Positions 2,935 to 64,000 of a stretch of 64,000 nucleotides of DNA are shown piece by piece. The DNA comes from Escherichia coli. GTDB lineage: Bacteria > Pseudomonadota > Gammaproteobacteria > Enterobacterales > Enterobacteriaceae. Below the pieces are notes generated by a model, which was not told where the DNA came from, did not search any database, and saw only the letters and a list, made by a program, of their open reading frames with translations. Location of the stretch: NCBI RefSeq assembly GCF_003334305.1, contig NZ_QOWS01000011.1; one strand, 5' to 3'. The translations under genes and the position numbers were made by a program. Position 1 is the stretch's first letter; every line of letters begins with the position of its first letter.

Positions 2935-3732
2935 TTAATGAACATTCGTCGCCGAAAACGAGTCTGTATCATTAGCGTGATGCAGTCTCTGCAAAGGATC
3001 TTGTTGATAAAATTGGCAGAAACGTTGCCACAATGAAGGGAAACGAGGAGCAAAAAGTTCTGGGGCGCTAAAGAAATATTCAGAAAGTACGGCAAAACAT
3101 TCAGCAGGATCACTGGCAGCATAAGCATCGATGCTCGCCGCATTCTCGCCAACCAATTCGATTTCTTCCTGAATGTTGTTCATTGCAGCATGAAGATCGT
3201 GTTCCCAGCCAGCAACCTCACGCAACGGAATAAAGGGAACTCCGCTGGCGCGATCGCCGTTACGGGTGTCCAGCTTATGAGCGACTTCATGAATAATCAG
3301 GTTAAAACCAGAAGCATCAAAAGAATCTTGTATATCCAACCAGTTCAAAACGATAGGCCCTTGCTGCCAGCTCTGACCTGACTGAACAATACGTTGGTTA
3401 TGCACCAGACCGATATCGTCTTCCCATTCATCATCGACCACAAATGGCGCAGGATAAATTAAGACTTCATGAAAACCATCCAGCCATTCCAGTCCTAACT
3501 CCAGAACGGGCAGGCAAAATAGAAGTGCTATCCGGCAGCTTCTTAATGAATTCAGCTCAAAGCCCTGTAAAGGAACAAGCCGTTTTTGCTGTAAAAAACG
3601 TTCGGCAAGAGTGACTAATTTGCTTTGTTCCTGTTCCGTCAGACACGTTAAAAGGGGGATCGATAGTGCTTCCTGCCAGGGAAGGGCAGTTTGATGTGCT
3701 GATTCTTGTACTTTCCAGGGCCACTTAATCAT
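2935..3732 (-). CDS. mtfA: Mlc titration factor A (zinc-dependent aminopeptidase)
   Basis: 265-aa frame with HEVAHKLD zinc motif; start taken at MIKWPWK, inside the longer track ORF. Confidence 0.9.
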
Positions 3733-12482: not shown

Positions 12483-12796
12483 TATGTATTCCCTTGTGAT
12501 TATAATCTTCATGAATATATCAATAAGTGCCGTTATCCAAAAAAAAGCACATTTGGATACTATTCTATGAAGTTCATTTTATTTTAAGGATTACATGTAA
12601 CAAATGTATTTAAAAGATTTCAAAGTGTTTCTAATATATTTAATATAATTCAGGATTATGAATTCTGAATATAAACATTCATGAAGATTATAAATGTATA
12701 TCAATAAGTTATGAGTTGAACTGAAAGATAGGGAGTATCAATGATCGTTGCGCTAAACGGCTGGTGTGATCACGCGCACATTAATGAAGGCATAAA

Positions 12797-12826
12797 AAAA
12801 AGCCGGCATCATGCCGGCCCAAAAAA
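12797..12826 (-). terminator. Strong intrinsic terminator on the minus strand in the porin-yedR spacer
   Basis: GC-rich hairpin GCCGGCATCATGCCGGC followed by eight U on the minus strand. Confidence 0.7.
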
Positions 12827-12886
12827 TATAAACAAGACGATAAAAGGCTAATAACGGAGGCATCATGACACAGAATAATAAAAAGG
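12797..12886 (-). ncRNA. rseX: Candidate small RNA (about 90 nt) ending at the terminator; position consistent with RseX
   Basis: Possible sigma70 promoter (TTCAAT, 18-nt spacer, TACAAT) about 90 nt upstream of the terminator on the minus strand; RseX placed between yedR and yedS from memory; 5' end not established. Confidence 0.4.
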
Positions 12887-13030: not shown

Positions 13031-13414
13031 TTGACTGGCTCATTCAATGTGGAAAAATGTGATTTTTATCACATAATAGTACTAAGTCTGAATTTTCCGG
13101 GTTATCTCAAAATGGAATACGGTTCGACAAAGATGGAAGAGAGACTCTCTCGCAGCCCTGGTGGCAAACTGGCTTTGTGGGCTTTCTATACATGGTGTGG
13201 CTATTTCGTCTGGGCAATGGCGCGTTACATCTGGGTGATGAGCCGGATCCCCGATGCCCCCGTGTCGGGATTTGAAAGCGATTTAGGCTCTACCGCGGGA
13301 AAGTGGTTAGGGGCACTGGTCGGATTTTTATTTATGGCTCTGGTCGGGGCATTGTTAGGCAGCATTGCCTGGTACACCCGACCTCGTCCCGCACGTAGCA
13401 GACGCTATGAATAA
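13031..13414 (+). CDS. yedR: Small inner-membrane protein YedR (start uncertain; alternatives at 13112 or 13133)
   Basis: ORF with two predicted transmembrane helices; the CRP site lies inside the longest ORF, so the true start may be downstream. Confidence 0.6.
   Translation: MTGSFNVEKCDFYHIIVLSLNFPGYLKMEYGSTKMEERLSRSPGGKLALWAFYTWCGYFVWAMARYIWVMSRIPDAPVSGFESDLGSTAGKWLGALVGFLFMALVGALLGSIAWYTRPRPARSRRYE
13058..13073. promoter_or_regulatory. Consensus CRP site (TGTGA-N6-TCACA)
   Basis: TGTGATTTTTATCACA, perfect match to both CRP half-sites. Confidence 0.6.
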
Positions 13415-13453: not shown

Positions 13454-14149
13454 ATGGACTTACAACACTGGCAGGCAGAGTTCGAAAACTGGTTGAAAAA
13501 CCATCATCAGCACCAGGACGCGGCCCATGACGTGTGTCATTTTCGCCGCGTCTGGGCTACGGCACAGAAGCTGGCGGCAGATGATGACGTCGATATGCTG
13601 GTGATTTTAACCGCCTGTTATTTTCACGATATTGTGAGCCTGGCGAAAAATCATCCGCAACGGCAGCGTTCTTCAATCCTGGCGGCAGAAGAGACGCGTC
13701 GCCTGCTCCGTGAAGAGTTCGTGCAATTTCCGGCGGAGAAAATTGAGGCCGTTTGTCATGCCATTGCCGCTCACAGTTTCAGCGCGCAAATCGCCCCCTT
13801 AACAACGGAAGCTAAAATCGTCCAGGATGCGGATCGGCTGGAAGCCCTGGGGGCGATTGGCCTGGCGCGCGTGTTTGCCGTTTCAGGGGCATTGGGCGTG
13901 GCGCTGTTTGATGGCGAAGATCCGTTCGCACAGCATCGCCCGCTTGATGATAAACGCTACGCGCTGGATCATTTCCAGACAAAGTTACTGAAATTACCGC
14001 AAACCATGCAAACCGCAAGAGGCAAGCAGCTGGCGCAGCACAACGCGCAATTTTTAGTCGAGTTTATGGCGAAGCTCAGTGCCGAACTGGCGGGGGAGAA
14101 TGAAGGTGTCGATCACAAGGTGATAGATGCGTTTTCACCCGCGGGCTGA
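13454..14149 (+). CDS. yedJ: HD-domain phosphohydrolase YedJ
   Basis: 231-aa ORF with HD motif (CYFHDIV). Confidence 0.9.
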
Positions 14150-14215
14150 GCGCGTGGCCCTAAATGGCTGTAATTATGTTAACCTGTCGGCCATCTCAGA
14201 TGGCCGGTTAAATCT

Positions 14216-15634
14216 ATGCAGGAAAATATATCAGTAACCGATTCATACAGCACCGGGAATGCCGTTCAGGCAATGCTGGAGAAACTGCTGCAAATTTATG
14301 ATGTTAAAACGCTGGTGGCGCAGCTTAATGGTGTGGGTGAGAATCACTGGAGCGCGGCAATTTTAAAACGTGCACTGGCGAATGACTCGGCATGGCACCG
14401 TTTAAGTGAGAAAGAGTTCGCCCATCTGCAAACGTTGTTACCCAAACCACCGGCACATCATCCGCATTATGCGTTTCGCTTTATCGATCTATTTGCCGGA
14501 ATTGGCGGCATCCGTCGCGGTTTTGAATCGATTGGTGGACAGTGCGTGTTTACCAGCGAATGGAACAAACATGCGGTACGCACTTATAAAGCCAATCATT
14601 ATTGCGACCCGGCGACGCATCATTTTAATGAAGATATCCGCGACATCACCCTCAGCCATCAAGAAGGCGTGAGTGATGAGGCGGCGGCGGAACATATTCG
14701 TCAACACATTCCTGAACACGATGTATTACTGGCCGGTTTTCCTTGTCAGCCATTTTCGCTGGCTGGCGTATCGAAAAAGAACTCGCTCGGGCGGGCGCAC
14801 GGTTTTGCCTGCGATACCCAGGGCACGCTGTTCTTTGATGTGGTGCGCATTATCGACGCGCGTCGTCCGGCGATGTTTGTGCTCGAAAACGTCAAAAACC
14901 TGAAAAGTCACGACCAGGGTAAAACGTTCCGCATCATCATGCAGACGCTGGACGAACTGGGCTATGACGTGGCTGATGCAGAAGATAACGGGCCGGACGA
15001 TCCGAAAATCATCGATGGCAAACATTTCCTGCCGCAGCACCGTGAACGCATCGTGCTGGTGGGTTTTCGTCGCGATCTGAATCTGAAAGCCGATTTTACC
15101 CTGCGTGATATCAGTGAATGTTTCCCTGCGCAGCGAGTGACGCTGGCCCAGCTGCTGGACCCGATGGTCGAGGCGAAATATATCCTGACGCCGGTGCTGT
15201 GGAAGTACCTCTATCGTTATGCGAAAAAACATCAGGCGCGCGGTAATGGCTTCGGTTATGGAATGGTTTATCCGAACAATCCGCAAAGCGTCACGCGTAC
15301 GCTGTCTGCGCGTTATTACAAAGATGGCGCGGAAATTTTAATCGATCGCGGCTGGGATATGGCCACGGGTGAAAAAGACTTTGACGATCCGCTGAATCAG
15401 CAACATCGTCCACGTCGGTTAACGCCTCGGGAATGCGCGCGCTTAATGGGTTTTGAAGCGCCGGGAGAAGCGAAATTCCGCATTCCGGTTTCGGACACTC
15501 AGGCTTATCGCCAGTTCGGTAACTCGGTGGTCGTGCCGGTCTTTGCCGCGGTGGCAAAACTGCTTGAGCCAAAAATCAAACAGGCGGTGGCGTTGCGTCA
15601 GCAAGAGGCACAACATGGTCGACGTTCACGATAA
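14216..15634 (+). CDS. dcm: DNA cytosine-5 methyltransferase Dcm (CCWGG)
   Basis: 472-aa ORF with m5C-MTase motifs (FAGIGG, PCQPFS, ENV). Confidence 0.95.
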
Positions 15635-16085
15635 GGCCACCCGCAGCAAAAATATGCGCGCGATTGCCACGCGTGATACGGCGATTGAGAAGCGCCTCGC
15701 CAGTTTGTTAACTGGGCAGGGCCTTGCGTTTCGCGTTCAGGACGCCAGTCTGCCCGGACGCCCGGATTTTGCCGTTGATGAATATCGCTGCGTGATATTT
15801 ACCCATGGCTGCTTCTGGCATCATCATCACTGCTATCTGTTTAAAGTGCCTGCGACTCGAACCGAGTTCTGGCTGGAGAAGATAGGTAAAAATGTTGAGC
15901 GCGATCGCCGCGATATCAGTCGCTTGCAGGAACTCGGCTGGCGCGTATTGATTGTCTGGGAGTGCGCGTTACGTGGGCGCGAGAAGCTGACGGATGAAGC
16001 GCTTACCGAGCGTCTGGAAGAGTGGATCTGCGGCGAAGGTGCCAGCGCGCAGATCGACACGCAGGGGATACATTTACTCGCTTGA
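15615..16085 (+). CDS. vsr: Very-short-patch repair endonuclease Vsr
   Basis: 156-aa frame starting [17 protein letters not shown]; overlaps the dcm 3' end by 20 nt in another frame. Confidence 0.9.
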
Positions 16086-16994
16086 TGCGTCCTGAATAAC
16101 TGGCGCAACTACGGGTTTTGCCGGAAAGAGATATTTTCCCAACGTGACCAGTACCACCGCGAAGACAATTACGCCGAGCGCCAGCCATTCAATCTTCGAC
16201 AACGTCTCTCCGCCCAGTCCCGTACCCAGCAAGACCGCGACCACCGGGTTAACGTAAGCGTAGCTGGTGGCGAGAGCCGGACTGACATTACGGATTAAAT
16301 ACATATAAGCGTTGATGGCGATAATCGAACCAAACAGCGCCAGATAGCCGACCGCAAGGAAGCCTGAAAGGGAAGGAAGCGCCGTCAGTTTTTCACCCGC
16401 AATCATCGACGCGATCATTAACACCACGCCTGCCGCCAGCATCTCAATCGCACCCGCCATCATCCCTACAGGTAAGGTAATGCGCGAGCCATAAACTGAG
16501 CCAAACGCCCAGCTAATCGAGCCGATTAAAATCAGAATCGCGCCCCATGGATTGCCGCTTAAGTTTCCACCGCTATTGAGCATGATGATTCCGGCAAGCC
16601 CAATGGCGATACCCACCCATTCCAGTTTGCGCGTTTTAATGCCAAACAGGCGGCTGAAGCACAGGGTAAAAAGGGGCACGGTTGCAACCACTACGGCGGC
16701 GATGCCGGAAGGAACATTTTGATGTTCGGCAACCGTCACCATGCCATTACCGACAGCCAGCAATAACAGGCCAATCAGCGCGGCATTGAGCAGCGGACGT
16801 GGCGGGGGAAGTTTGTGTCCGCGCAGTAGCAAAAATGCCAGCAATAAAATACCGGCTGCCAGGAATCGAACGCCCGCCATCATTAACGGAGGCCAGCTTT
16901 CCACGCCAATCCGAATGACAAAATAGGTTGAGCCCCAAATGATATACAACGCAAACAGCGCGCCAAAAAGCGGTAACAACTGGCGGAAACGCAT
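16074..16994 (-). CDS. yedA: EamA/DMT-family transporter YedA
   Basis: 306-aa polytopic membrane ORF; its 3' end overlaps vsr convergently. Confidence 0.9.
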   Translation of the reverse strand: MRFRQLLPLFGALFALYIIWGSTYFVIRIGVESWPPLMMAGVRFLAAGILLLAFLLLRGHKLPPPRPLLNAALIGLLLLAVGNGMVTVAEHQNVPSGIAAVVVATVPLFTLCFSRLFGIKTRKLEWVGIAIGLAGIIMLNSGGNLSGNPWGAILILIGSISWAFGSVYGSRITLPVGMMAGAIEMLAAGVVLMIASMIAGEKLTALPSLSGFLAVGYLALFGSIIAINAYMYLIRNVSPALATSYAYVNPVVAVLLGTGLGGETLSKIEWLALGVIVFAVVLVTLGKYLFPAKPVVAPVIQDASSE

Positions 16995-18515: not shown

Positions 18516-21040
<2,525 letters not shown>

Positions 21041-21219: not shown

Positions 21220-21306
21220 AACACATCAGATTTCCTGGTGTAACGAATTTTTTAAGTGCTTCTTGCTTAAGCAAGTTTCATCCCGACCCCCTCAGGGTCG
21301 GGATTT
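21220..21306 (+). ncRNA. dsrA: DsrA small regulatory RNA
   Basis: 87-nt match to remembered DsrA, including the terminal CCCGACCCCCTCAGGGTCGGG hairpin and U-tract. Confidence 0.95.
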
Positions 21307-33834: not shown

Positions 33835-34251
33835 GTTGTGTTACGTGTTGATTGTGCTTGTTTAATGACATCCAAACTCACAGCGTGGGGCATTGATGGG
33901 GCAAACTCACTCAATTTCTGGTTTAAAATGGAAACCTGATTCTGAAAGTTTTCTGCCATCCACGATCCGTATACGTGATAACCCCCCTGAACATCAGAGT
34001 GTCTCCTTTAACACGCATCACCAGGTCGGTTGTTGTTACGACCACAGACGCAACATTAATATTTTGATAATTTCATCTTATTTGATGTTTTTATTCATAT
34101 TCCGGGCTAGGGAAATAATCAGGCATAATTGTGTCACTGGAATAGAGGTTTCTTGTGGCGCATGTGGAAAGAGCGTCTAAGGACAAGACATTTGCGGCTG
34201 ATAATAAATAAAGGCGCAGCTCGTCGAATGCAAGAATGTGCTGCGTCTGGC

Positions 34252-41724: not shown

Positions 41725-43431
41725 ATGGCACAAGTCATTAATACCAACAGCCTCTCGCTGATCACTCAAAATAATATCAACAAGAACCAGTCTGCGCTGT
41801 CGAGTTCTATCGAGCGTCTGTCTTCTGGCTTGCGTATTAACAGCGCGAAGGATGACGCCGCAGGTCAGGCGATTGCTAACCGTTTTACTTCTAATATTAA
41901 AGGCCTGACTCAGGCTGCACGTAACGCCAACGACGGTATCTCCGTTGCGCAGACCACTGAAGGCGCGCTGTCCGAAATCAACAACAACTTACAGCGTATT
42001 CGTGAACTGACGGTTCAGGCTTCTACCGGGACTAACTCCGATTCAGATCTGGACTCCATTCAGGACGAAATCAAATCCCGTCTCGACGAAATTGACCGCG
42101 TATCCGGTCAGACCCAGTTCAACGGCGTGAACGTACTGGCGAAAGACGGTTCGATGAAAATTCAGGTTGGTGCGAATGACGGCCAGACTATCACTATTGA
42201 TCTGAAGAAAATTGACTCTGATACGCTGGGGCTGAATGGGTTTAACGTTAACGGCAAAGGTACTATTGCGAACAAAGCTGCTACAGTCAGCGATCTGACC
42301 GCTGCTGGTGCAACGGGAACAGGTCCTTATGCTGTGACCACAAACAATACAGCTCTCAGCGCTAGCGATGCACTGTCTCGCCTGAAAACCGGAGATACAG
42401 TTACTACTACTGGCTCGAGTGCTGCGACCTATACTTATGATGCGGCTAAAGGGAACTTCACCACTCAAGCAACAGTTGCAGATGGTGATGTTGTTAACTT
42501 TGCAAATACTCTGAAACCAGCGGCTGGCACTACTGCATCAGGTGTTTATACTCGTAGTACTGGTGATGTGAAGTTTGATGTAGATGCTAATGGCGATGTG
42601 ACCATCGGTGGTAAAGCCGCGTACCTGGACGCCACTGGTAACCTATCTACAAACAACGCCGGCATTGCATCTTCAGCGAAATTGTCCGATCTGTTTGCTA
42701 GCGGTAGTACTTTAGCGACAACTGGTTCTATCCAGCTGTCTGGCACAACTTATAACTTTGGTGCTGCGGCAACTTCTGGCGTAACCTACACCAAAACGGT
42801 AAGTGCTGATACTGTTCTGAGCACAGTACAGAGTGCTGCAACGGCTAACACAGCAGTTACTGGTGCGACAATTAAGTATAATACAGGTATTCAGTCTGCA
42901 ACTGCGTCTTTCGGTGGTGCGAATACTAATGGTGCTGGTAATTCGAATGACACCTATACTGATGCAGACAAAGAGCTCACCACAACCGCATCTTACACTA
43001 TCAACTACAACGTCGATAAGGATACCGGTACAGTAACTGTAGCTTCAAATGGCGCAGGTGCAACTGGTAAATTTGCAGCTACTGTTGGGGCACAGGCTTA
43101 TGTTAACTCTACAGGTAAACTGACCACTGAAACCACCAGTGCAGGCACTGCAACCCAAGATCCTCTGGCTGCCCTGGACGACGCTATCAGCTCCATCGAC
43201 AAATTCCGTTCATCCCTGGGTGCTATCCAGAACCGTCTGGATTCTGCGGTGACTAACCTGAACAACACCACTACCAACCTGTCTGAAGCGCAGTCCCGTA
43301 TTCAGGACGCTGACTATGCGACCGAAGTGTCCAACATGTCGAAAGCGCAGATTATCCAGCAGGCCGGTAACTCCGTGCTGGCAAAAGCCAACCAGGTACC
43401 GCAGCAGGTTCTGTCTCTGCTGCAGGGATAA
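41725..43431 (+). CDS. fliC: Flagellin (H antigen), 568 aa, non-K-12 central domain
   Basis: Conserved N-terminal ([20 protein letters not shown]...) and C-terminal (LSLLQG) flagellin domains flanking a long Thr/Ala/Gly-rich variable region. Confidence 0.95.
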
Positions 43432-53610: not shown

Positions 53611-53636
53611 AAACCACCTTCGGGTGGTTTTTTTGT
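53611..53636 (+). terminator. Intrinsic terminator of the tRNA operon
   Basis: AAACCACC TTCG GGTGGTTTTTTTG hairpin with U-tract. Confidence 0.85.
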
Positions 53637-53762
53637 GCCTGCAACTTGTCGTTACACCCTCCTTAATTATTAATCACCGGCAAAGCCACTCAAAAAGTAT
53701 CTCTGTTACGGACCGACATGTAAGATAGGTGCTGGCGAGTTGAGATCCACAAGGAAAAGCGT

Positions 53763-54428
53763 ATGAAAACGGGACCGTTAAACGAAAGTGAGTTGGAATG
53801 GCTGGACGATATTCTGACCAAATACAACACTGACCACGCCATCCTTGATGTGGCGGAACTGGACGGTTTATTGACGGCGGTGTTGAGTTCTCCGCAAGAG
53901 ATTGAACCGGCACAGTGGCTGGTTGCCGTATGGGGTGGGGCTGACTATGTGCCACGCTGGGCGTCAGAGAAAGAGATGACGCGCTTTATGAACCTGGCTT
54001 TTCAGCATATGGCCGATACCGCAGAGCGTCTGAACGAATTCCCGGAGCAGTTTGAGCCGTTATTCGGCTTGCGAGAAGTCGATGGCAGCGAGCTGACGAT
54101 TGTTGAGGAGTGGTGCTTTGGCTATATGCGGGGCGTGGCACTTTCTGACTGGTCAACGTTGCCCGATTCGTTAAAACCAGCGCTGGAGGCGATTGCGCTG
54201 CACGGTACTGAGGAAAACTTCGAGCGGGTAGAGAAGATGTCGCCAGAAGCGTTTGAAGAGAGCGTAGATGCCATTCGACTGGCGGCGCTTGATCTACATG
54301 CGTACTGGATGGCGCATCCGCAGGAAAAAGCTGTTCAGCAACCGATCAAAGCAGAAGAGAAACCGGGGCGTAATGATCCTTGCCCGTGCGGTAGTGGTAA
54401 GAAATTTAAGCAGTGCTGCCTGCATTAA
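53763..54428 (+). CDS. yecA: UPF0149-family protein YecA with C-terminal SEC-C zinc motif
   Basis: 221-aa ORF ending in [13 protein letters not shown]. Confidence 0.9.
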
Positions 54429-54489
54429 GAGAGCAAATTGGGTGTCAGCGTTAATTCTGGCACCCAATAAGGAATTTGAGGCTATCTGA

Positions 54490-55701
54490 TCACCCCACTT
54501 CTGGTAACAAGCCTGCCGCAATCAAAAATTGCACGCTAATCACAGCAATACCACAGAGAAACACCACCACCAGCGCCGGACGACCACCTTTCACCCGGTA
54601 ACCCGCCTGAGGATTGTGCTTTCTGCTTTGCCAGGTCAACAGCGAAGGGATAATCAATGCCAGTACCGCCAGCGCCACACCGGCGTAACCCAGCGCCATC
54701 ACAAATCCTCGTGGATAAAACAGTGCAAACGCCAACGGAGGCAGAAAGGTAATTGCACCAGTTTGCAATCGTCCACCAACGGTATTTGAACGCTGAAACA
54801 AATCAGCCAGATAATCAAATAAACCTAACGCAACGCCGAGAAATGACGTGGCGAGGGCTAAATCAGCAAATAAATGCACCGCCAGCTCAACATGCGGAGA
54901 GGCCACCATTTCGCGTAACGCCTGTAACAGCCCGTTTAATCCGGCATGATTAGCCAGCAATCCCATAAAGGTTGTTGAATCAATGCTGCCAAGGGTCGCC
55001 AGCTGCCAGAAAATATATGCCACCAGGGGGATCGCACTACCGATTATAAACACCCAGCGTAGTTTACGAATGTTGCCATCCATATAGCTGACAATACTCG
55101 GCACGCTACCGTGAAAACCAAACGACGTAAAAATCACCGGGATTGCAGATAGTGCGAGCCCCTGTTGCAACGGCAGGGTTAAAAGATTCACTTTGTGAAT
55201 ATGCGGCAGCAGTAGTACCAGCATTACCACCAGAAAAATAATCTTGGCGCTGAACAGAAAACGGTTAAACAAATCGACCAGCGATGTCCCGACACAAACC
55301 ACGCCACCGGCAACAAAAGTGAACAACAGCACGCCAGCGGTTGCCGACATTGAAATACCTGTCCAGTCGCTGATGCTGGAGGCCAACAATTCACCGGCAC
55401 CGCTGATGTATGCCGCAGTCAGAGCATACATTAAGAACATCATACTGAAGCCTGTCAGCCACTGACCGTAGCGTCCCAGATAGCGTTTTGCCAGCGTGCC
55501 CAGGCCGGTATCTGCCGGGACATGCTGGTACACCTCCAGCAGTAATAGCGCCGTGTAGCACATCAACGCCCAAAGCCCAATCAACAAGATTAACGTGACG
55601 CTAAAACCGACACCTGCCGCAGCCAGCGGCATTGCCAGCATGCCTGCGCCAATTGTGGTTCCCGCCACGATAAAAACACTTCCCAGAGTTCTGTTTTTCA
55701 C
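54490..55701 (-). CDS. tyrP: Tyrosine-specific transporter
   Basis: 403-aa polytopic membrane ORF. Confidence 0.95.
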
Positions 55702-55792
55702 GCTTTCTTCTGTCCTGACGATCTTTATGAGTGATATCTGCGGCGCAGGTTAAGGCATAACGGCTGGTTCGTCAAACCGGCGTTACATATGG

Positions 55793-55810
55793 TGTAAATA
55801 TAAATGTACA
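55793..55810. promoter_or_regulatory. TyrR box in the tyrP promoter
   Basis: TGTAAATATAAATGTACA, close to the TGTAAA-N6-TTTACA consensus. Confidence 0.65.
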
Positions 55811-55890
55811 ATAAAATGCGTTCAGTCCTGCGCTGGCGCAAAGTCTTGGTAAGCGGCAATCGCTACGCTAGCCTTTTTTGAGGAGGAACG

Positions 55891-56130
55891 ATGGACTCTA
55901 TTCACGGTCATGAAGTGTTAAATATGATGATTGAATCAGGTGAGCAATATACGCATGCCAGTCTGGAAGCTGCGATTAAAGCGCGTTTTGGTGAACAGGC
56001 ACGTTTTCACACTTGCTCGGCAGAAGGGATGACAGCGGGAGAGCTGGTAGCGTTTCTGGCAGCAAAAGGCAAATTTATACCTTCGGAAGAAGGTTTTTCG
56101 ACCGATCAGAGTAAGATTTGCCGTCACTGA
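55891..56130 (+). CDS. yecH: Small protein YecH
   Basis: 79-aa ORF. Confidence 0.85.
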   Translation: MDSIHGHEVLNMMIESGEQYTHASLEAAIKARFGEQARFHTCSAEGMTAGELVAFLAAKGKFIPSEEGFSTDQSKICRH

Positions 56131-56135
56131 TTTGA

Positions 56136-56163
56136 AACGGCGGCAGTAAACCTGCCGCCGGAG
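56136..56163. terminator. Hairpin between convergent yecH and ftnA
   Basis: CGGCGGCAG TAAA CCTGCCGCCG stem-loop. Confidence 0.6.
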
Positions 56164-56167
56164 AACA

Positions 56168-56665
56168 TTAGTTTTGTGTGTCGAGGGTAGAGAGTTCTTT
56201 GTCGATAAAATACAGACCTTCGCCGCTTTTGCCTGCCAGGCTTAATTTATCAATAATCGATTTGAACAGTTTCTCTTCTTCATGCTGCTCAGAAACATAC
56301 CATTGCAGGAAATTAAATGTTGGGTAGTCCTGATTGGTCATTGCAGCATGAGCCAGTTCGTTAATTTTCTGCGTGATTAATTGTTCGTGTTTATAGGTTT
56401 CCTGGAATAATTCATCAAGTGAGGAATATTCAGCAAACGGAGATTCAACGGTATTAATACGCGGTAAGTTGCCGGTATCAGTCAGATAATCAAACAGACG
56501 CTGCATATGCGTCATCTCTTCCTGGGCGTGGCGGCGCAGGAACGCGGCAGCACCTTCGAAGGTATGATAGCTGCACCAGGCGCTCATTTGCTGATAAAGC
56601 AGTGAAGAGTACAGTTCCAGGTTCATCTGCTCATTAAGTTTTTCAATCATTTCTGGTTTCAGCAT
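56168..56665 (-). CDS. ftnA: Ferritin FtnA
   Basis: 165-aa frame starting [15 protein letters not shown]. Confidence 0.95.
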
Positions 56666-56835
56666 GATAGTGCTCCACAAAGGTTATATTTGTTGCTGTG
56701 GCGTCACTATAATTTGTTATTTTATTATTTGCAAAAGGTAAAATATAAACTTCAATTATTAAAAATACGAATGGGAATAAAACGCATTACCGCTATTTAT
56801 TTAATCAGCGAAGATCCCCTCGCTGATTAAAACAT

Positions 56836-57159
56836 TTAGAGAAAGACAGGGAAGGCGGAATGATGGCACTGATATGACAAAGTGAATTCCGTATTCAAAC
56901 ATAAGGAACCCGCAAAAAGGCTACAGTTGCCTACTGGCTGACCAAAGGGGATAGCGTGGGTATAGCCTTCCTGCTGGCATGCGCGATCGGCGATCCCGCG
57001 ACTGACATAACGATCGGTACGGGCATGCTGCAAAAAAGCCTGATCATAAACCAACCGAACAATACCTGTTGCCGTGTCAACTTCGCCCACATGAGCCTGG
57101 CGAGTAACTGTGCACCCCGCCAGCGTTATTAATGAAAGAGTCAGAATCAGAAGTCTCAT
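56836..57159 (-). CDS. yecR: Lipoprotein YecR
   Basis: 107-aa ORF with lipobox LAGC. Confidence 0.85.
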   Translation of the reverse strand: MRLLILTLSLITLAGCTVTRQAHVGEVDTATGIVRLVYDQAFLQHARTDRYVSRGIADRACQQEGYTHAIPFGQPVGNCSLFAGSLCLNTEFTLSYQCHHSAFPVFL

Positions 57160-57324
57160 GGTCCAGCCAGAAGAGTAAAAGAAAGCACTATTTTACGCGT
57201 TACAGCGCTGCGACAATGGCCGGAAAAGACGCCTGGCAGGCGCTATTTCTTGCCATCTGTAGGTGTCAGAAATGGGGGTGCTGCTTTTTGATTATCATTT
57301 TTATAACATTAAAAGGGTATTTAT

Positions 57325-57340
57325 GTGATTTGCATCACAT
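57325..57340. promoter_or_regulatory. Consensus CRP site upstream of azuC
   Basis: TGTGATTTGCATCACA; a second CRP-like site TGTGATGGTTGTCATA lies about 20 nt downstream. Confidence 0.65.
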
Positions 57341-57421
57341 AAAGATTGATTTTTGTGATGGTTGTCATATTATAAGTGCAAAGACAATAACACCTGCATA
57401 ACAAATAGTCGGAGTGCCGCG

Positions 57422-57508
57422 ATGAAACTGCGCAAGATCCTGAAAAGTATGTTCAATAACTATTGCAAGACGTTCAAAGACGTACCACCAGGCAATATGT
57501 TCCGATAA
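57422..57508 (+). CDS. azuC: Small protein AzuC (28 aa); the mRNA also acts as the IsrB/AzuR RNA
   Basis: Translates to MKLRKILKSMFNNYCKTFKDVPPGNMFR; below the size cut-off of the ORF track. Confidence 0.85.
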   Translation: MKLRKILKSMFNNYCKTFKDVPPGNMFR

Positions 57509-57514
57509 CAAAAA

Positions 57515-57537
57515 ACCTGCTCCGGCAGGTTTTTTTG
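57515..57537 (+). terminator. azuC intrinsic terminator
   Basis: ACCTGC TCCG GCAGGTTTTTTTG hairpin with U-tract. Confidence 0.85.
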
Positions 57538-57622
57538 TGTCCTGGTGACGGTGGATGTGACTATCGCTGAAGATGTGAAGCCGCTACTATAACGGCTTTC
57601 AAAATGCTATCAGGAGTTTACG

Positions 57623-57874
57623 ATGTCCCAGCCGCTGAATGCCGATCAGGAACTGGTTTCTGATGTGGTTGCTTGCCAGTTGGTTATCAAACAAATTCTC
57701 GACGTTCTGGATGTAATCGCGCCCGTTGAAGTTCGCGAAAAAATGTCCAGCCAGCTGAAGAATATCGACTTTACTCACCATCCCGCCGCCGCAGACCCGG
57801 TCACCATGCGGGCAATCCAAAAAGCCATCGCGCTGATTGAACTCAAGTTTACCCCACAGGGCGAATCCCATTAA
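57623..57874 (+). CDS. yecJ: Small protein YecJ
   Basis: 83-aa ORF. Confidence 0.85.
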
Positions 57875-57952
57875 AAAACCGCATCTTCAAAAAGATGAGG
57901 CAGCGGTTTCTCAAAAACTTCATCGGCGCAATTGCATTAGCGCCGATGACGA

Positions 57953-58456
57953 TCAATGCAGCTGATGCGACACGACATTCAGAACATGTTGGTCAGTCTG
58001 CACAGGGCACATACCAGCAAGTTTCGCACTGCGCACTTCATCAAGAATGGTTTGCAGCAACAGGCCATCATGCTGCTGTTCTTTTTCCAGATCGCGCAGG
58101 AAATTGACGGTTGAATCATCATTCAGTTCTTTAGCTTCATCGGCTAACTGTGCCAGCGTGCTTGAACGTTGCTCGTATTCTTCCATCGTTTTTTGGAAAA
58201 GTTCTTCCAGTGAGTTCAGTTTTTCACCGGGAACATCAATGGCTTTAACGATGGGAGTAGCGCCGACACTCTTCATAAAGTTAAACATGCGCATCATTTG
58301 GGTCACGTTACTCTGTGCCTGGGCGCGAAGGAAAGTGGCGGTGCCGTTCAGACTCTGTTCAGAACACCAGTTACTCAGGTGAAGGTAGAGATTGGATGCG
58401 TAAAACTCGCGGTTCATTTGAGAGTTGAGTTTGAGAAGCATTCCAGCGGTTGCCAT
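57953..58456 (-). CDS. ftnB: Ferritin-like protein FtnB
   Basis: 167-aa ferritin-fold ORF. Confidence 0.9.
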
Positions 58457-59251
58457 ACCTAATATCCTTATATCCAGAAGTGGAGAGGTGCAAGATAAAT
58501 CAAAACACCATAATTACTGTTTGCAGAATAATTCCTTTCTGCCGGTCCGAAATGTGATCGTGGAGTCAATTCTGACGATGATCTGAAATAAGAATAACGT
58601 CTGAACGGGTATAAGAAAATGCTTAAATCATCAAGTTTATATATTTTTACATTTCATTGATGAAATCAATGTAACTGCAATGAATTTTAATGATAGTGCT
58701 TTTTGTATCTTGTTGATATTAATCGGTGAATTTGAATTCATGATGAAGCAATGATTTTTTAAAACGTTTTTTCATTTTTGCGATATGGCTCTCAGTATAC
58801 GTGTTCTGTTAATTAATGAACACGGTGATAATTAATGGCGAAATGAATGACGCGCTTTTTCCACATCTTTGAGTTGCGGTTATTACACCATTGCAAAAAC
58901 TCAACGCCAGGTAATGTGGCCTATTGACTGGTTAAAAAAAAGACATCCAGCTGGGTACCAAAGACAACAAGGATTTCCAGGCTAATCTTATGGATTAATC
59001 TGCTGTGCACTAGACAATTTGTCAGACAAATTGGCTTTTCCTTATGTCTTTTCCCGCTAAATTTATGCACGTTCTCACTGTAATTCTGCGATGTGATATT
59101 GCTCTCCTATGGAGAATTAATTTCTCGCTAAAACTATGTCAACACAGTCACTTATCTTTTAGTTAAAAGGTAATGCTTTGTTTTCCGATTAATTTAACGA
59201 ATGTCATTCGTTTTTGCCCTACACAAAACGACACTAAAGCTGGAGAGAACC

Positions 59252-60241
59252 ATGCACAAATTTACTAAAGCCCTGGCAGCCATTGGTCTGGCAGCCGTTA
59301 TGTCACAATCCGCTATGGCGGAGAACCTGAAGCTCGGTTTCCTGGTGAAGCAACCGGAAGAGCCGTGGTTCCAGACCGAATGGAAGTTTGCCGATAAAGC
59401 CGGGAAGGATTTAGGGTTTGAGGTTATTAAGATTGCCGTGCCGGATGGCGAAAAAACATTGAACGCGATCGACAGCCTGGCTGCCAGTGGCGCAAAAGGT
59501 TTCGTTATTTGTACTCCGGACCCCAAACTCGGCTCTGCCATCGTCGCGAAAGCGCGTGGCTACGATATGAAAGTCATTGCCGTGGATGACCAGTTTGTTA
59601 ACGCCAAAGGTAAGCCAATGGATACCGTTCCGCTGGTGATGATGGCGGCGACTAAAATTGGCGAACGTCAGGGTCAGGAACTGTATAAAGAGATGCAGAA
59701 ACGTGGCTGGGATGTCAAAGAAAGCGCGGTGATGGCGATTACCGCCAACGAACTGGATACGGCACGTCGCCGTACAACGGGTTCTATGGATGCGCTGAAA
59801 GCGGCCGGATTCCCGGAAAAACAAATTTATCAGGTACCTACCAAATCTAACGACATTCCGGGGGCATTTGACGCTGCCAACTCAATGCTGGTTCAACATC
59901 CGGAAGTTAAACATTGGCTGATCGTCGGTATGAACGACAGCACCGTGCTGGGCGGCGTACGCGCGACGGAAGGTCAGGGCTTTAAAGCTGCCGATATCAT
60001 CGGCATTGGCATTAACGGTGTGGATGCGGTGAGCGAACTGTCTAAAGCACAGGCAACCGGCTTCTACGGTTCCCTGCTGCCAAGCCCGGACGTACATGGC
60101 TATAAATCCAGCGAAATGCTTTACAACTGGGTAGCAAAAGACGTTGAACCGCCAAAATTTACCGAAGTTACCGACGTGGTGCTGATCACGCGTGACAACT
60201 TTAAAGAAGAACTGGAGAAAAAAGGTTTAGGCGGTAAGTAA
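59252..60241 (+). CDS. araF: L-arabinose-binding periplasmic protein
   Basis: 329-aa frame starting MHKFTKALAAIGLAAVMSQSAMA. Confidence 0.95.
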   Translation: MHKFTKALAAIGLAAVMSQSAMAENLKLGFLVKQPEEPWFQTEWKFADKAGKDLGFEVIKIAVPDGEKTLNAIDSLAASGAKGFVICTPDPKLGSAIVAKARGYDMKVIAVDDQFVNAKGKPMDTVPLVMMAATKIGERQGQELYKEMQKRGWDVKESAVMAITANELDTARRRTTGSMDALKAAGFPEKQIYQVPTKSNDIPGAFDAANSMLVQHPEVKHWLIVGMNDSTVLGGVRATEGQGFKAADIIGIGINGVDAVSELSKAQATGFYGSLLPSPDVHGYKSSEMLYNWVAKDVEPPKFTEVTDVVLITRDNFKEELEKKGLGGK

Positions 60242-60310
60242 TTTGCCGGAAAAATTCCCCTCTGCATGATGCAGAGGGGGTGTGAACGACCAGTGATTCA
60301 CGGAGACGTT

Positions 60311-61825
60311 ATGCAACAGTCTACCCCGTATCTCTCATTTCGCGGCATCGGTAAAACGTTTCCCGGCGTTAAGGCGCTGACGGATATTAGTTTTGACTGC
60401 TATGCCGGTCAGGTTCATGCGTTGATGGGTGAAAATGGCGCAGGAAAATCAACTCTCTTAAAAATCCTCAGCGGCAACTATGCGCCAACCACGGGTTCTG
60501 TAGTGATTAATGGGCAGGAAATGTCCTTTTCCGACACGACCGCAGCACTTAACGCGGGTGTGGCGATTATTTACCAGGAACTGCATCTCGTGCCGGAAAT
60601 GACCGTCGCGGAAAACATCTATCTCGGCCAGCTGCCGCATAAAGGCGGCATTGTGAATCGCTCATTGCTGAATTATGAGGCGGGTTTACAACTTAAACAT
60701 CTTGGTATGGATATTGACCCGGACACGCCGCTGAAATATCTCTCCATTGGTCAGTGGCAGATGGTTGAAATCGCCAAGGCGCTGGCGCGTAACGCTAAAA
60801 TTATCGCCTTTGATGAGCCAACCAGCTCCCTTTCTGCCCGCGAAATCGACAATCTTTTCCGCGTTATTCGTGAACTGCGAAAAGAGGGGCGGGTGATCTT
60901 ATACGTTTCTCACCGTATGGAAGAAATATTTGCCCTCAGCGATGCCATCACTGTCTTTAAAGATGGACGTTATGTCAAAACCTTTACCGATATGCAGCAG
61001 GTTGACCACGACGCGCTGGTGCAGGCGATGGTCGGGCGCGACATTGGCGATATCTACGGCTGGCAACCTCGTAGTTATGGCGAGGAGCGCCTGCGTCTTG
61101 ATGCTGTGAAAGCACCAGGCGTGCGTACGCCAATAAGTCTGGCGGTTCGCAGTGGTGAAATTGTTGGGCTGTTTGGTCTGGTAGGGGCGGGGCGTAGCGA
61201 ATTAATGAAAGGCTTGTTTGGCGGGACGCAAATCACCGCCGGTCAGGTTTATATCGACCAACAGCCGATCGATATTCGTAAACCGAGCCACGCCATTGCC
61301 GCAGGCATGATGCTCTGCCCGGAAGATCGCAAAGCGGAAGGCATTATTCCCGTGCACTCCGTTCGCGACAATATCAACATCAGTGCCAGACGTAAACATG
61401 TGCTCGGCGGTTGTGTAATCAACAACGGTTGGGAAGAAAACAATGCCGATCACCACATTCGTTCGCTCAACATCAAAACGCCGGGCGCTGAGCAACTGAT
61501 CATGAATCTCTCAGGCGGAAATCAGCAAAAAGCCATTCTGGGCCGCTGGTTATCGGAAGAGATGAAGGTCATTTTGCTGGATGAACCTACGCGCGGCATT
61601 GATGTTGGTGCTAAGCATGAAATTTACAACGTGATTTATGCGCTGGCGGCGCAGGGTGTGGCGGTGCTGTTTGCCTCCAGCGACTTACCTGAAGTCCTCG
61701 GCGTTGCCGACCGGATTGTGGTGATGCGGGAAGGTGAAATCGCCGGTGAATTGTTACACGAGCAGGCAGATGAGCGTCAGGCACTGAGCCTTGCGATGCC
61801 TAAAGTCAGCCAGGCAGTTGCCTGA
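60311..61825 (+). CDS. araG: L-arabinose ABC transporter ATPase
   Basis: 504-aa frame with duplicated ABC ATPase domains. Confidence 0.95.
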
Positions 61826-61839
61826 GTAAGGAGAGTATG

Positions 61840-64000
<2,161 letters not shown>

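Follow-up and report, generated by a model that had tools for sequence, protein, structure and literature searches.

Organisation of the dcm-vsr-yedA locus

The gene vsr of Escherichia coli, whose product is the very-short-patch repair endonuclease, shares nucleotides with both of its neighbours, the DNA cytosine-5 methyltransferase gene dcm on the 5' side and the convergent exporter gene yedA on the 3' side. Both overlaps were analysed in a stretch of 64,000 nucleotides (nt) of E. coli DNA (RefSeq assembly GCF_003334305.1, contig NZ_QOWS01000011.1), here called the window, to which all positions refer. The genes and overlaps of the locus are the following.

14216-15634, plus strand: dcm, DNA cytosine-5 methyltransferase of 472 amino acids, stop codon TAA at 15632-15634
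15615-16085, plus strand: vsr, very-short-patch repair endonuclease of 156 amino acids, ATG at 15615, stop codon TGA at 16083-16085
16074-16994, minus strand: yedA, EamA-type drug/metabolite exporter of 306 amino acids, its stop codon TAA being the complement of 16074-16076
15615-15634, plus strand: dcm/vsr overlap of 20 nt, comprising Vsr codons 1-7 and Dcm codons 467-472 with the stop codon
16074-16085, both strands: convergent, tail-to-tail overlap of vsr and yedA of 12 nt
13133-13414, plus strand: drpB (yedR), at the head of the extended transcription unit (identified by transfer of the RefSeq annotation of L001)
13454-14149, plus strand: yedJ, gene of an HD-domain phosphohydrolase 5' of dcm (open reading frame (ORF) list and RefSeq annotation)

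According to the sequence and the ORF list, vsr is read in the +1 frame relative to dcm. Its ATG lies 17 nt upstream of the dcm stop codon on the same strand, and this TAA takes its T from Vsr codon 6 (GAT) and its AA from codon 7 (AAG). At the other end of vsr the codon boundaries of both strands are in register, the yedA stop codon being complementary to TTA of Vsr Leu154 and the vsr TGA to a serine codon of YedA.

In the RefSeq annotations of strain FDAARGOS_497, of the K-12 derivative DH5a and of the divergent strain 7/2 the three genes have identical relative coordinates. A preliminary description of the locus had placed the start of vsr 20 nt inside the 3' end of dcm and its 3' end 12 nt inside yedA, and had called this an expected architecture. 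Both lengths are exact by the sequence, the ORF list and the annotation of the three strains, in which the same ordinary layout was already recorded, and the comparison with K-12 gave the same start and stop positions for DH5a relative to the window. The K-12 operon also agrees in the order drpB-yedJ-dcm-vsr with yedA convergent, and both overlaps lie at the same relative coordinates. The architecture as such is already known and annotated, and little is gained beyond its confirmation; what is new is a comparison of 80 Enterobacteriaceae species. It adds modestly to the annotation in three respects, namely a fixed length of the dcm/vsr overlap, selection on the vsr frame within it, and a labile yedA overlap that would be a by-product.

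A query of 901 nt spanning both junctions matched 5368 of 5426 complete E. coli genomes with at least 90% identity. The matching places numbered 5372, two of them annotated on plasmids. In the genome H25, CUVET21-PYO5, the match is split in two at query position 736 (about window position 16135, inside yedA), which points to an insertion in that gene.

Identity of the encoded proteins

All three proteins were assigned with NCBIfam profiles. Dcm matches PRK10458 with 951.1 bits (cut-off 710) and the profile spans residues 1-469 of 472; the last three residues are thus beyond the profile, and the last six lie within the vsr overlap. Residues 1-118 of Vsr align to positions 1-119 of TIGR00632 with 180.1 bits (cut-off 97.85). 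YedA is recognised by the equivalog profile PRK11272 with 512 bits (cut-off 270) over residues 1-291 of 306, and its last 15 residues, including the overlapping tail, are beyond the profile.

Compared with the K-12 derivative, Vsr is 98.7% and Dcm 99.6% identical, and only allelic differences are present. In Vsr of the window these are A2V and V53A. The first one, GCC to GTC, falls inside the overlap, where it leaves Dcm unchanged (GGC to GGT, both Gly). Residues 3-156 of Vsr align to the crystallised protein (PDB 1CW0) with V53A as sole substitution. The translation contains all the catalytic and zinc-binding residues of E. coli Vsr (D51, T63, H64 and H69; C66, H71, C73 and C117), roles that were reportedly assigned in the crystal-structure papers of 1999. 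Judged by its identity to the characterised K-12 enzyme, Vsr of the window probably nicks 5' of the T of a T:G mismatch within CTWGG/CCWGG.

The dcm/vsr overlap in the Enterobacteriaceae

For the comparison one genome per species was scanned with the Vsr protein, which yielded 80 Enterobacteriaceae loci. In each of them the three genes were located by tblastn and every frame was extended to its stop codon. The arrangements of dcm and vsr are distributed as follows.

Overlap of 20 nt: 53 species loci
Overlap of 17 nt (dcm one codon shorter): 5 species loci
Overlap of 35 nt: 1 species locus
dcm stop codon 10-12 nt before vsr, with a strong Shine-Dalgarno (SD) sequence between: 5 loci (Cedecea, Dryocola, two 'Enterobacter' isolates)
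Spacer of 35 nt, or of about 0.9-1.0 kb with an ORF on the opposite strand: 6 loci (Buttiauxella)
No dcm in the 3 kb upstream and yedJ just before vsr: 9 loci (Kosakonia, Phytobacter, Pseudescherichia and relatives)
Upstream flank of insufficient length for assignment: 1 locus (L066)

Some overlap of dcm and vsr is thus present in 59 of the 80 species loci. With one exception (58/80) these have an overlap of 20 or 17 nt in which the TAA lies within the Vsr codons for H-D/N-K, and they include Escherichia, Salmonella, Citrobacter, Enterobacter, Lelliottia, Raoultella and others. The length is fixed in most Enterobacteriaceae because the dcm stop codon lies inside the conserved Vsr codons 6-7.

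Variation at the junction was followed as the column entropy per codon position, for which 61 junctions of other species (59 distinct sequences) were aligned without gaps. Upstream of the vsr ATG the entropy peaks at the third position of the dcm codons (1.39 bits, against 0.80 and 0.85 at the other two). Inside the overlap it peaks at the third position of the vsr codons (0.91 bits, against 0.37 at position 1 and 0.16 at position 2), as it does beyond the overlap (1.05 bits, against 0.00 and 0.01). The three-nucleotide period of variation consequently switches from the dcm to the vsr frame exactly at ATG 15615, and the six columns directly 5' of the ATG are the most variable ones of the alignment. 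Within the overlap it is the vsr frame that selection follows, and the last six residues of Dcm are thus passengers.

Several loci depart from the common arrangement. In the nine species without dcm (Kosakonia, Phytobacter, Pseudescherichia, UBA7338 and 'Enterobacter' Bisph1; loci L032, L033, L035, L036, L040, L045, L062, L064 and L068) an intact vsr lies directly 3' of yedJ. The spacer between yedJ and vsr measures 11-18 nt in the six loci for which ORFs were listed, and it carries a strong SD sequence. In these species vsr is an orphan repair endonuclease gene at a conserved locus, as judged from the 3 kb upstream in which dcm was sought.

In five Buttiauxella loci (L042, L043, L050, L051 and L079) dcm and vsr are about 0.9-1.0 kb apart, and the pair is accordingly uncoupled there. 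The spacer harbours an ORF on the opposite strand which comprises 172 amino acids in L042 (2185-2703, minus strand of that locus) and L050 and has a signal-peptide-like N-terminus. The spacer of Buttiauxella sp. B2 (L055) measures only 35 nt. In Klebsiella indica (L029, about 2950-3555 of that locus) the match to dcm stops at Dcm residue 347 (59% identity) and is followed by the usual 20-nt junction, which suggests that dcm is internally deleted.

Outside the family, vsr also stands beside other genes for 5-methylcytosine methyltransferases, for example in Neisseria, and this adjacency is the same as in E. coli (PMC12907096). Unlike E. coli vsr, vsrA of Caulobacter is unlinked from its methylase gene (PMC12907096).

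Frequency of overlapping genes

Overlaps involve about 27% of prokaryotic genes; 84% of them are co-directional, and short ones, typically of 4 or 1 nt, predominate (PMC10666635). The local frequency was counted from the coding sequences annotated by RefSeq in about 64 kb of FDAARGOS_497, a region whose collinearity with the window is confined to the first 32 kb. It contains 17 overlapping pairs with overlaps of 1-20 nt. Fifteen pairs are co-directional, with overlaps of 1, 4, 8, 11, 14 and 20 nt, and dcm/vsr is the longest of them; the two convergent pairs are yedP/dgcQ (4 nt) and vsr/yedA (12 nt). Both overlaps of vsr are at the long end of the local distribution but well inside the normal range. 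The convergent yedP/dgcQ overlap lies at 20207-20210 of the window and is also listed among the convergent transcript overlaps of MG1655 (PMC12288877).

Probable translational coupling of vsr to dcm

The two overlaps very probably have different origins, the one at the 5' end of vsr reflecting translational coupling to dcm and the one at the 3' end drift of stop codons. It is established that vsr follows dcm on a shared transcript (PMC12907096; PMC4924334), and in K-12 the operon reaches up to yedR(drpB)-yedJ, as determined by SMRT-Cappable-seq (bioRxiv 10.1101/262964). Vsr activity is also lost through the nonsense mutation dcm-6 at codon 45 (PMC4444293, citing Dar and Bhagwat 1993). The 'known coupling' of dcm and vsr in the preliminary description is backed by this literature on co-transcription and on the loss of Vsr activity in dcm-6. 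A sigma-70-like promoter match was not found inside dcm, which is consistent with the single dcm-vsr transcript described for K-12. Likewise, no terminator-like site was found on the plus strand between dcm and vsr, and an Rfam scan of the whole window returned nothing in the interval 15.6-16.1 kb. Dar and Bhagwat reportedly showed in 1993 that Vsr is a separate polypeptide, the efficient synthesis of which needs translation of dcm.

Two elements of the messenger RNA (mRNA) at the junction are relevant to initiation at vsr.

15603-15608, plus strand: Shine-Dalgarno-like AAGAGG of vsr within dcm codons, 6 nt before the ATG
15586-15641, plus strand: predicted weak mRNA hairpin enclosing the vsr SD sequence, the vsr AUG and the dcm stop codon (minimum-energy fold, z = -1.94)

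The GAG core of the SD sequence is at least 90% conserved across the 61 sequences, and its duplex with the 3' end of the 16S ribosomal RNA has a predicted energy of -5.8 kcal/mol. The mean energy is -5.7 kcal/mol where vsr overlaps dcm (n = 53), in comparison to -8.5 where dcm stops 10-35 nt 5' of vsr (n = 6) and -8.4 where dcm is absent (n = 9). Overlapping loci have a weaker SD sequence than the 20 non-overlapping ones taken together (Mann-Whitney p = 4e-4), the species not being phylogenetically independent.

According to the proposed mechanism, Vsr would be made by ribosomes fresh from translating dcm, which would unmask the vsr ribosome-binding site buried in the dcm codons; alternatively, such ribosomes may re-initiate at the vsr AUG, 17 nt 5' of the dcm stop. 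Synthesis of the enzyme that repairs T:G at CCWGG would in this way be tied to synthesis of the methylase that makes these sites deamination-prone, and the output of Vsr would be capped by the level of dcm translation. The pair can be regarded as a textbook tie, both genetic and translational, of a mutagenic DNA modification to its dedicated repair enzyme.

In several features dcm and vsr resemble other pairs that are coupled through short overlaps, since both genes lie on one strand, vsr starts before the upstream stop codon, its SD sequence is inside the upstream coding sequence and, in the literature on K-12, a single mRNA carries both. Coupling in such pairs needs an overlap or a very short distance (PMC10666635). 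Typical coupled pairs overlap by 4 nt (ATGA) or 1 nt, whereas the overlap of dcm and vsr comprises 20 nt, so that a terminating dcm ribosome would need to move back 17 nt. Coupled genes also typically encode subunits of one complex, whereas Dcm and Vsr are the maker and the repairer of a lesion. The two proteins are not known to be partners in a complex.

A number of observations weigh against coupling by structural unmasking, and against coupling in general. The hairpin is only marginally more stable than shuffled sequences in the fold predicted for E. coli, and its lack of conservation across genera leaves unmasking without comparative support. A conserved RNA hairpin masking the ribosome-binding site was rejected, since the pair counts equal those of the controls (63.7% of cells pair, against 62.9% in shuffles, 61 sequences) and RNAalifold did not recover the hairpin 15586-15641 from the junction sequences. 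Apparent covariation at one of its pairs (columns 25/74) is mainly confined to Citrobacter and concerns two third-codon positions. Furthermore, vsr has its own SD sequence at a good spacing, so some independent initiation is possible. The gene is intact in lineages in which dcm stops 10-12 nt upstream or is missing from the locus; it persists there without an overlap, which is therefore not required for its expression. The loss of Vsr in dcm-6 could in part result from Rho-dependent transcriptional polarity and not from translational coupling.

Another explanation treats the two overlaps as neutral packing without a mechanistic role: initiation of Vsr at its own SD sequence and AUG would be independent, the dcm-6 effect would be Rho-dependent transcriptional polarity, and the length of 20 nt would be incidental to the conserved Vsr codons. 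The 6-nt spacing of the SD sequence, the intact vsr of lineages with a 10-12 nt spacer or without dcm at the locus and the failure to find a conserved masking structure across genera agree with it, and the conserved position of the TAA is fully accounted for by Vsr codons 6-7 (GAT/AAT AAG). However, the SD sequence is significantly weaker in overlapping than in non-overlapping lineages, and the literature describes dcm and vsr as co-expressed and a nonsense allele of dcm as lacking Vsr (PMC4444293). Moreover, termination-reinitiation in E. coli is efficient only at overlaps or very short distances (PMC10666635), which fits the conserved geometry. Purely neutral packing is on these grounds unlikely, though it is the best of the alternatives, and translational coupling is preferred for the 5' overlap.

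The convergent junction of vsr and yedA

The 12-nt overlap with yedA differs from the one with dcm in its variability. In all 76 loci that hold both genes vsr and yedA are arranged tail-to-tail, and the junction ranges from a gap of 28 nt to an overlap of 86 nt. Its length is specific to the genus, with 12 nt in Escherichia and Salmonella, 9 nt in most Citrobacter, 29 nt in Enterobacter and Lelliottia and 26 nt in several further genera; in Buttiauxella and Cedecea it is 0. The conserved part of Vsr ends with ...AQIDTQGIH and that of YedA with ...VTLGKYLFPAKP; the overlaps fall into the variable tails beyond. In Klebsiella indica (L029) and in a Klebsiella metagenome-assembled genome (L034) the Vsr frame runs 83-86 nt into yedA.

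The yedA overlap appears to be an evolutionarily labile by-product, explained most simply by drift. The stop codons would have drifted within the unconserved C-terminal tails of Vsr and YedA, and the pair may have been free of a spacer since before the sampled genera of Enterobacteriaceae diverged.

Terminator-like sites were not found just beyond the stop codon of either vsr or yedA, and the folds past both stops do not exceed shuffles in stability (z = 0.74 and 0.01). A terminator-like match at 15673-15657 on the minus strand, inside vsr, is likewise no more stable than shuffles (z = 1.44) and was rejected; its T-run is the complement of vsr AAA AAT (Lys12-Asn13), and the match was therefore treated as a by-product of coding.

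Since the coding sequences overlap by 12 nt, expression of both genes necessarily yields mRNAs with complementary 3' ends. The pair yedA-vsr is listed among 165 convergent 'excludons' and belongs to the core set of convergent transcript overlaps in MG1655, with detection in at least 50% of 58 transcriptomes (PMC12288877). With these excludons vsr/yedA shares the tail-to-tail orientation and overlapping transcripts, but its overlap is one of 12 nt between coding sequences, whereas excludons have long overlapping untranslated regions.

It has to be considered that the junction is regulatory, with antisense transcription in either direction lowering the mRNA of the partner and helping to keep Vsr low in growing cells in spite of the mRNA shared with dcm. 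The listing in the core convergent excludome of MG1655 (PMC12288877) would agree with such a function, as would the missing terminator-like hairpin or unusual structure just past either stop and the spacer-free tail-to-tail junction kept in all 76 loci. However, for genes with overlapping coding sequences this listing is near-automatic, short intergenic distances are common among the convergent pairs of the list (PMC12288877), and the length of the vsr/yedA overlap varies freely between genera, as drift predicts. A regulatory role is thus improbable. The narrower proposal that, during growth, antisense read-through from yedA selectively destabilises or silences the dcm-vsr mRNA at its vsr end is more doubtful still; if it were true, it would help to explain why growing cells keep Vsr low relative to Dcm and why Vsr rises in stationary phase.

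The start codon of vsr

Three of the four gene boundaries concerned are stop codons and are fixed once the frames are known, and the frames of dcm, vsr and yedA are confirmed by the NCBIfam matches. The vsr start is accordingly the only boundary that needs judgement. The TIGR00632 profile aligns to the product of ATG 15615 from residue 1 and the crystallised chain 1CW0 comprises Vsr residues 2-156. In addition, the 14 N-terminal residues contribute to activity and to stimulation by MutL, and their loss impairs the enzyme (PMC2715241). The same start is supported by its annotation in the three RefSeq strains, by the AAGAGG 6 nt 5' of it, by the switch of the period of variation at this ATG and by the high variability of the six columns before it.

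That the start is mis-assigned, so that translation begins at Met14 (15654) without any overlap with dcm or a Dcm-Vsr fusion arises by +1 frameshifting, is very improbable: an in-frame ATG does exist at codon 14 and the vsr frame is open for 56 codons 5' of the ATG in E. coli, but Vsr residues 3-13 are conserved with variation confined to third positions of vsr, the 1CW0 chain begins at residue 2, Vsr without its 14 N-terminal residues is impaired (PMC2715241), no slippery motif was seen at dcm/vsr, and the upstream open frame varies from 0 codons in Salmonella to 4-28 codons in many other genera. In the strain of the window a fusion is not barred by stop codons, as the open frame of 56 codons implies. 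An upstream start or a frameshift fusion was nevertheless rejected, since this open frame is not conserved and an in-frame TAG immediately precedes the vsr ATG in Salmonella.

Surroundings of the locus

In the spacer between yedJ and dcm (14150-14215) a perfect GC-rich hairpin, CGGCCAUC-UCA-GAUGGCCG, is located at 14188-14206 on the plus strand just 5' of the dcm AUG. Its predicted outer pairing reaches the start codon (AUGCAGG), and the fold of 96 nt has a z-score of -2.49. Possible roles of the hairpin are those of an attenuator, of a processing site or of an element controlling dcm translation.

The Rfam scan detected two small RNAs in the window, DsrA at 21220-21306 (plus strand, 102.5 bits) and RseX at 12795-12884 (minus strand, 99 bits).

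The strain from which the window derives is not K-12. Over the first 32 kb the window agrees with FDAARGOS_497 to 99.4%, with 100% identity over the 901-nt junction query, and beyond about 34 kb the two are no longer collinear. When the FDAARGOS_497 annotation is transferred (1-2834), the window starts inside the yersiniabactin island, with ybtS extending to about 1141, and a tyrosine integrase gene (1335-2597) adjoins the gene for transfer RNA (tRNA)-Asn at 2759-2834. Collinearity with FDAARGOS_497 is broken at 34100-34113 by a deletion relative to a pseudogene/integrase remnant, and again at 42260-43158 by a divergent flagellin (fliC) segment. From 53636 to 64000, past the tRNA cluster Leu-Cys-Gly, the window has no match in FDAARGOS_497, which indicates a different strain-specific island.

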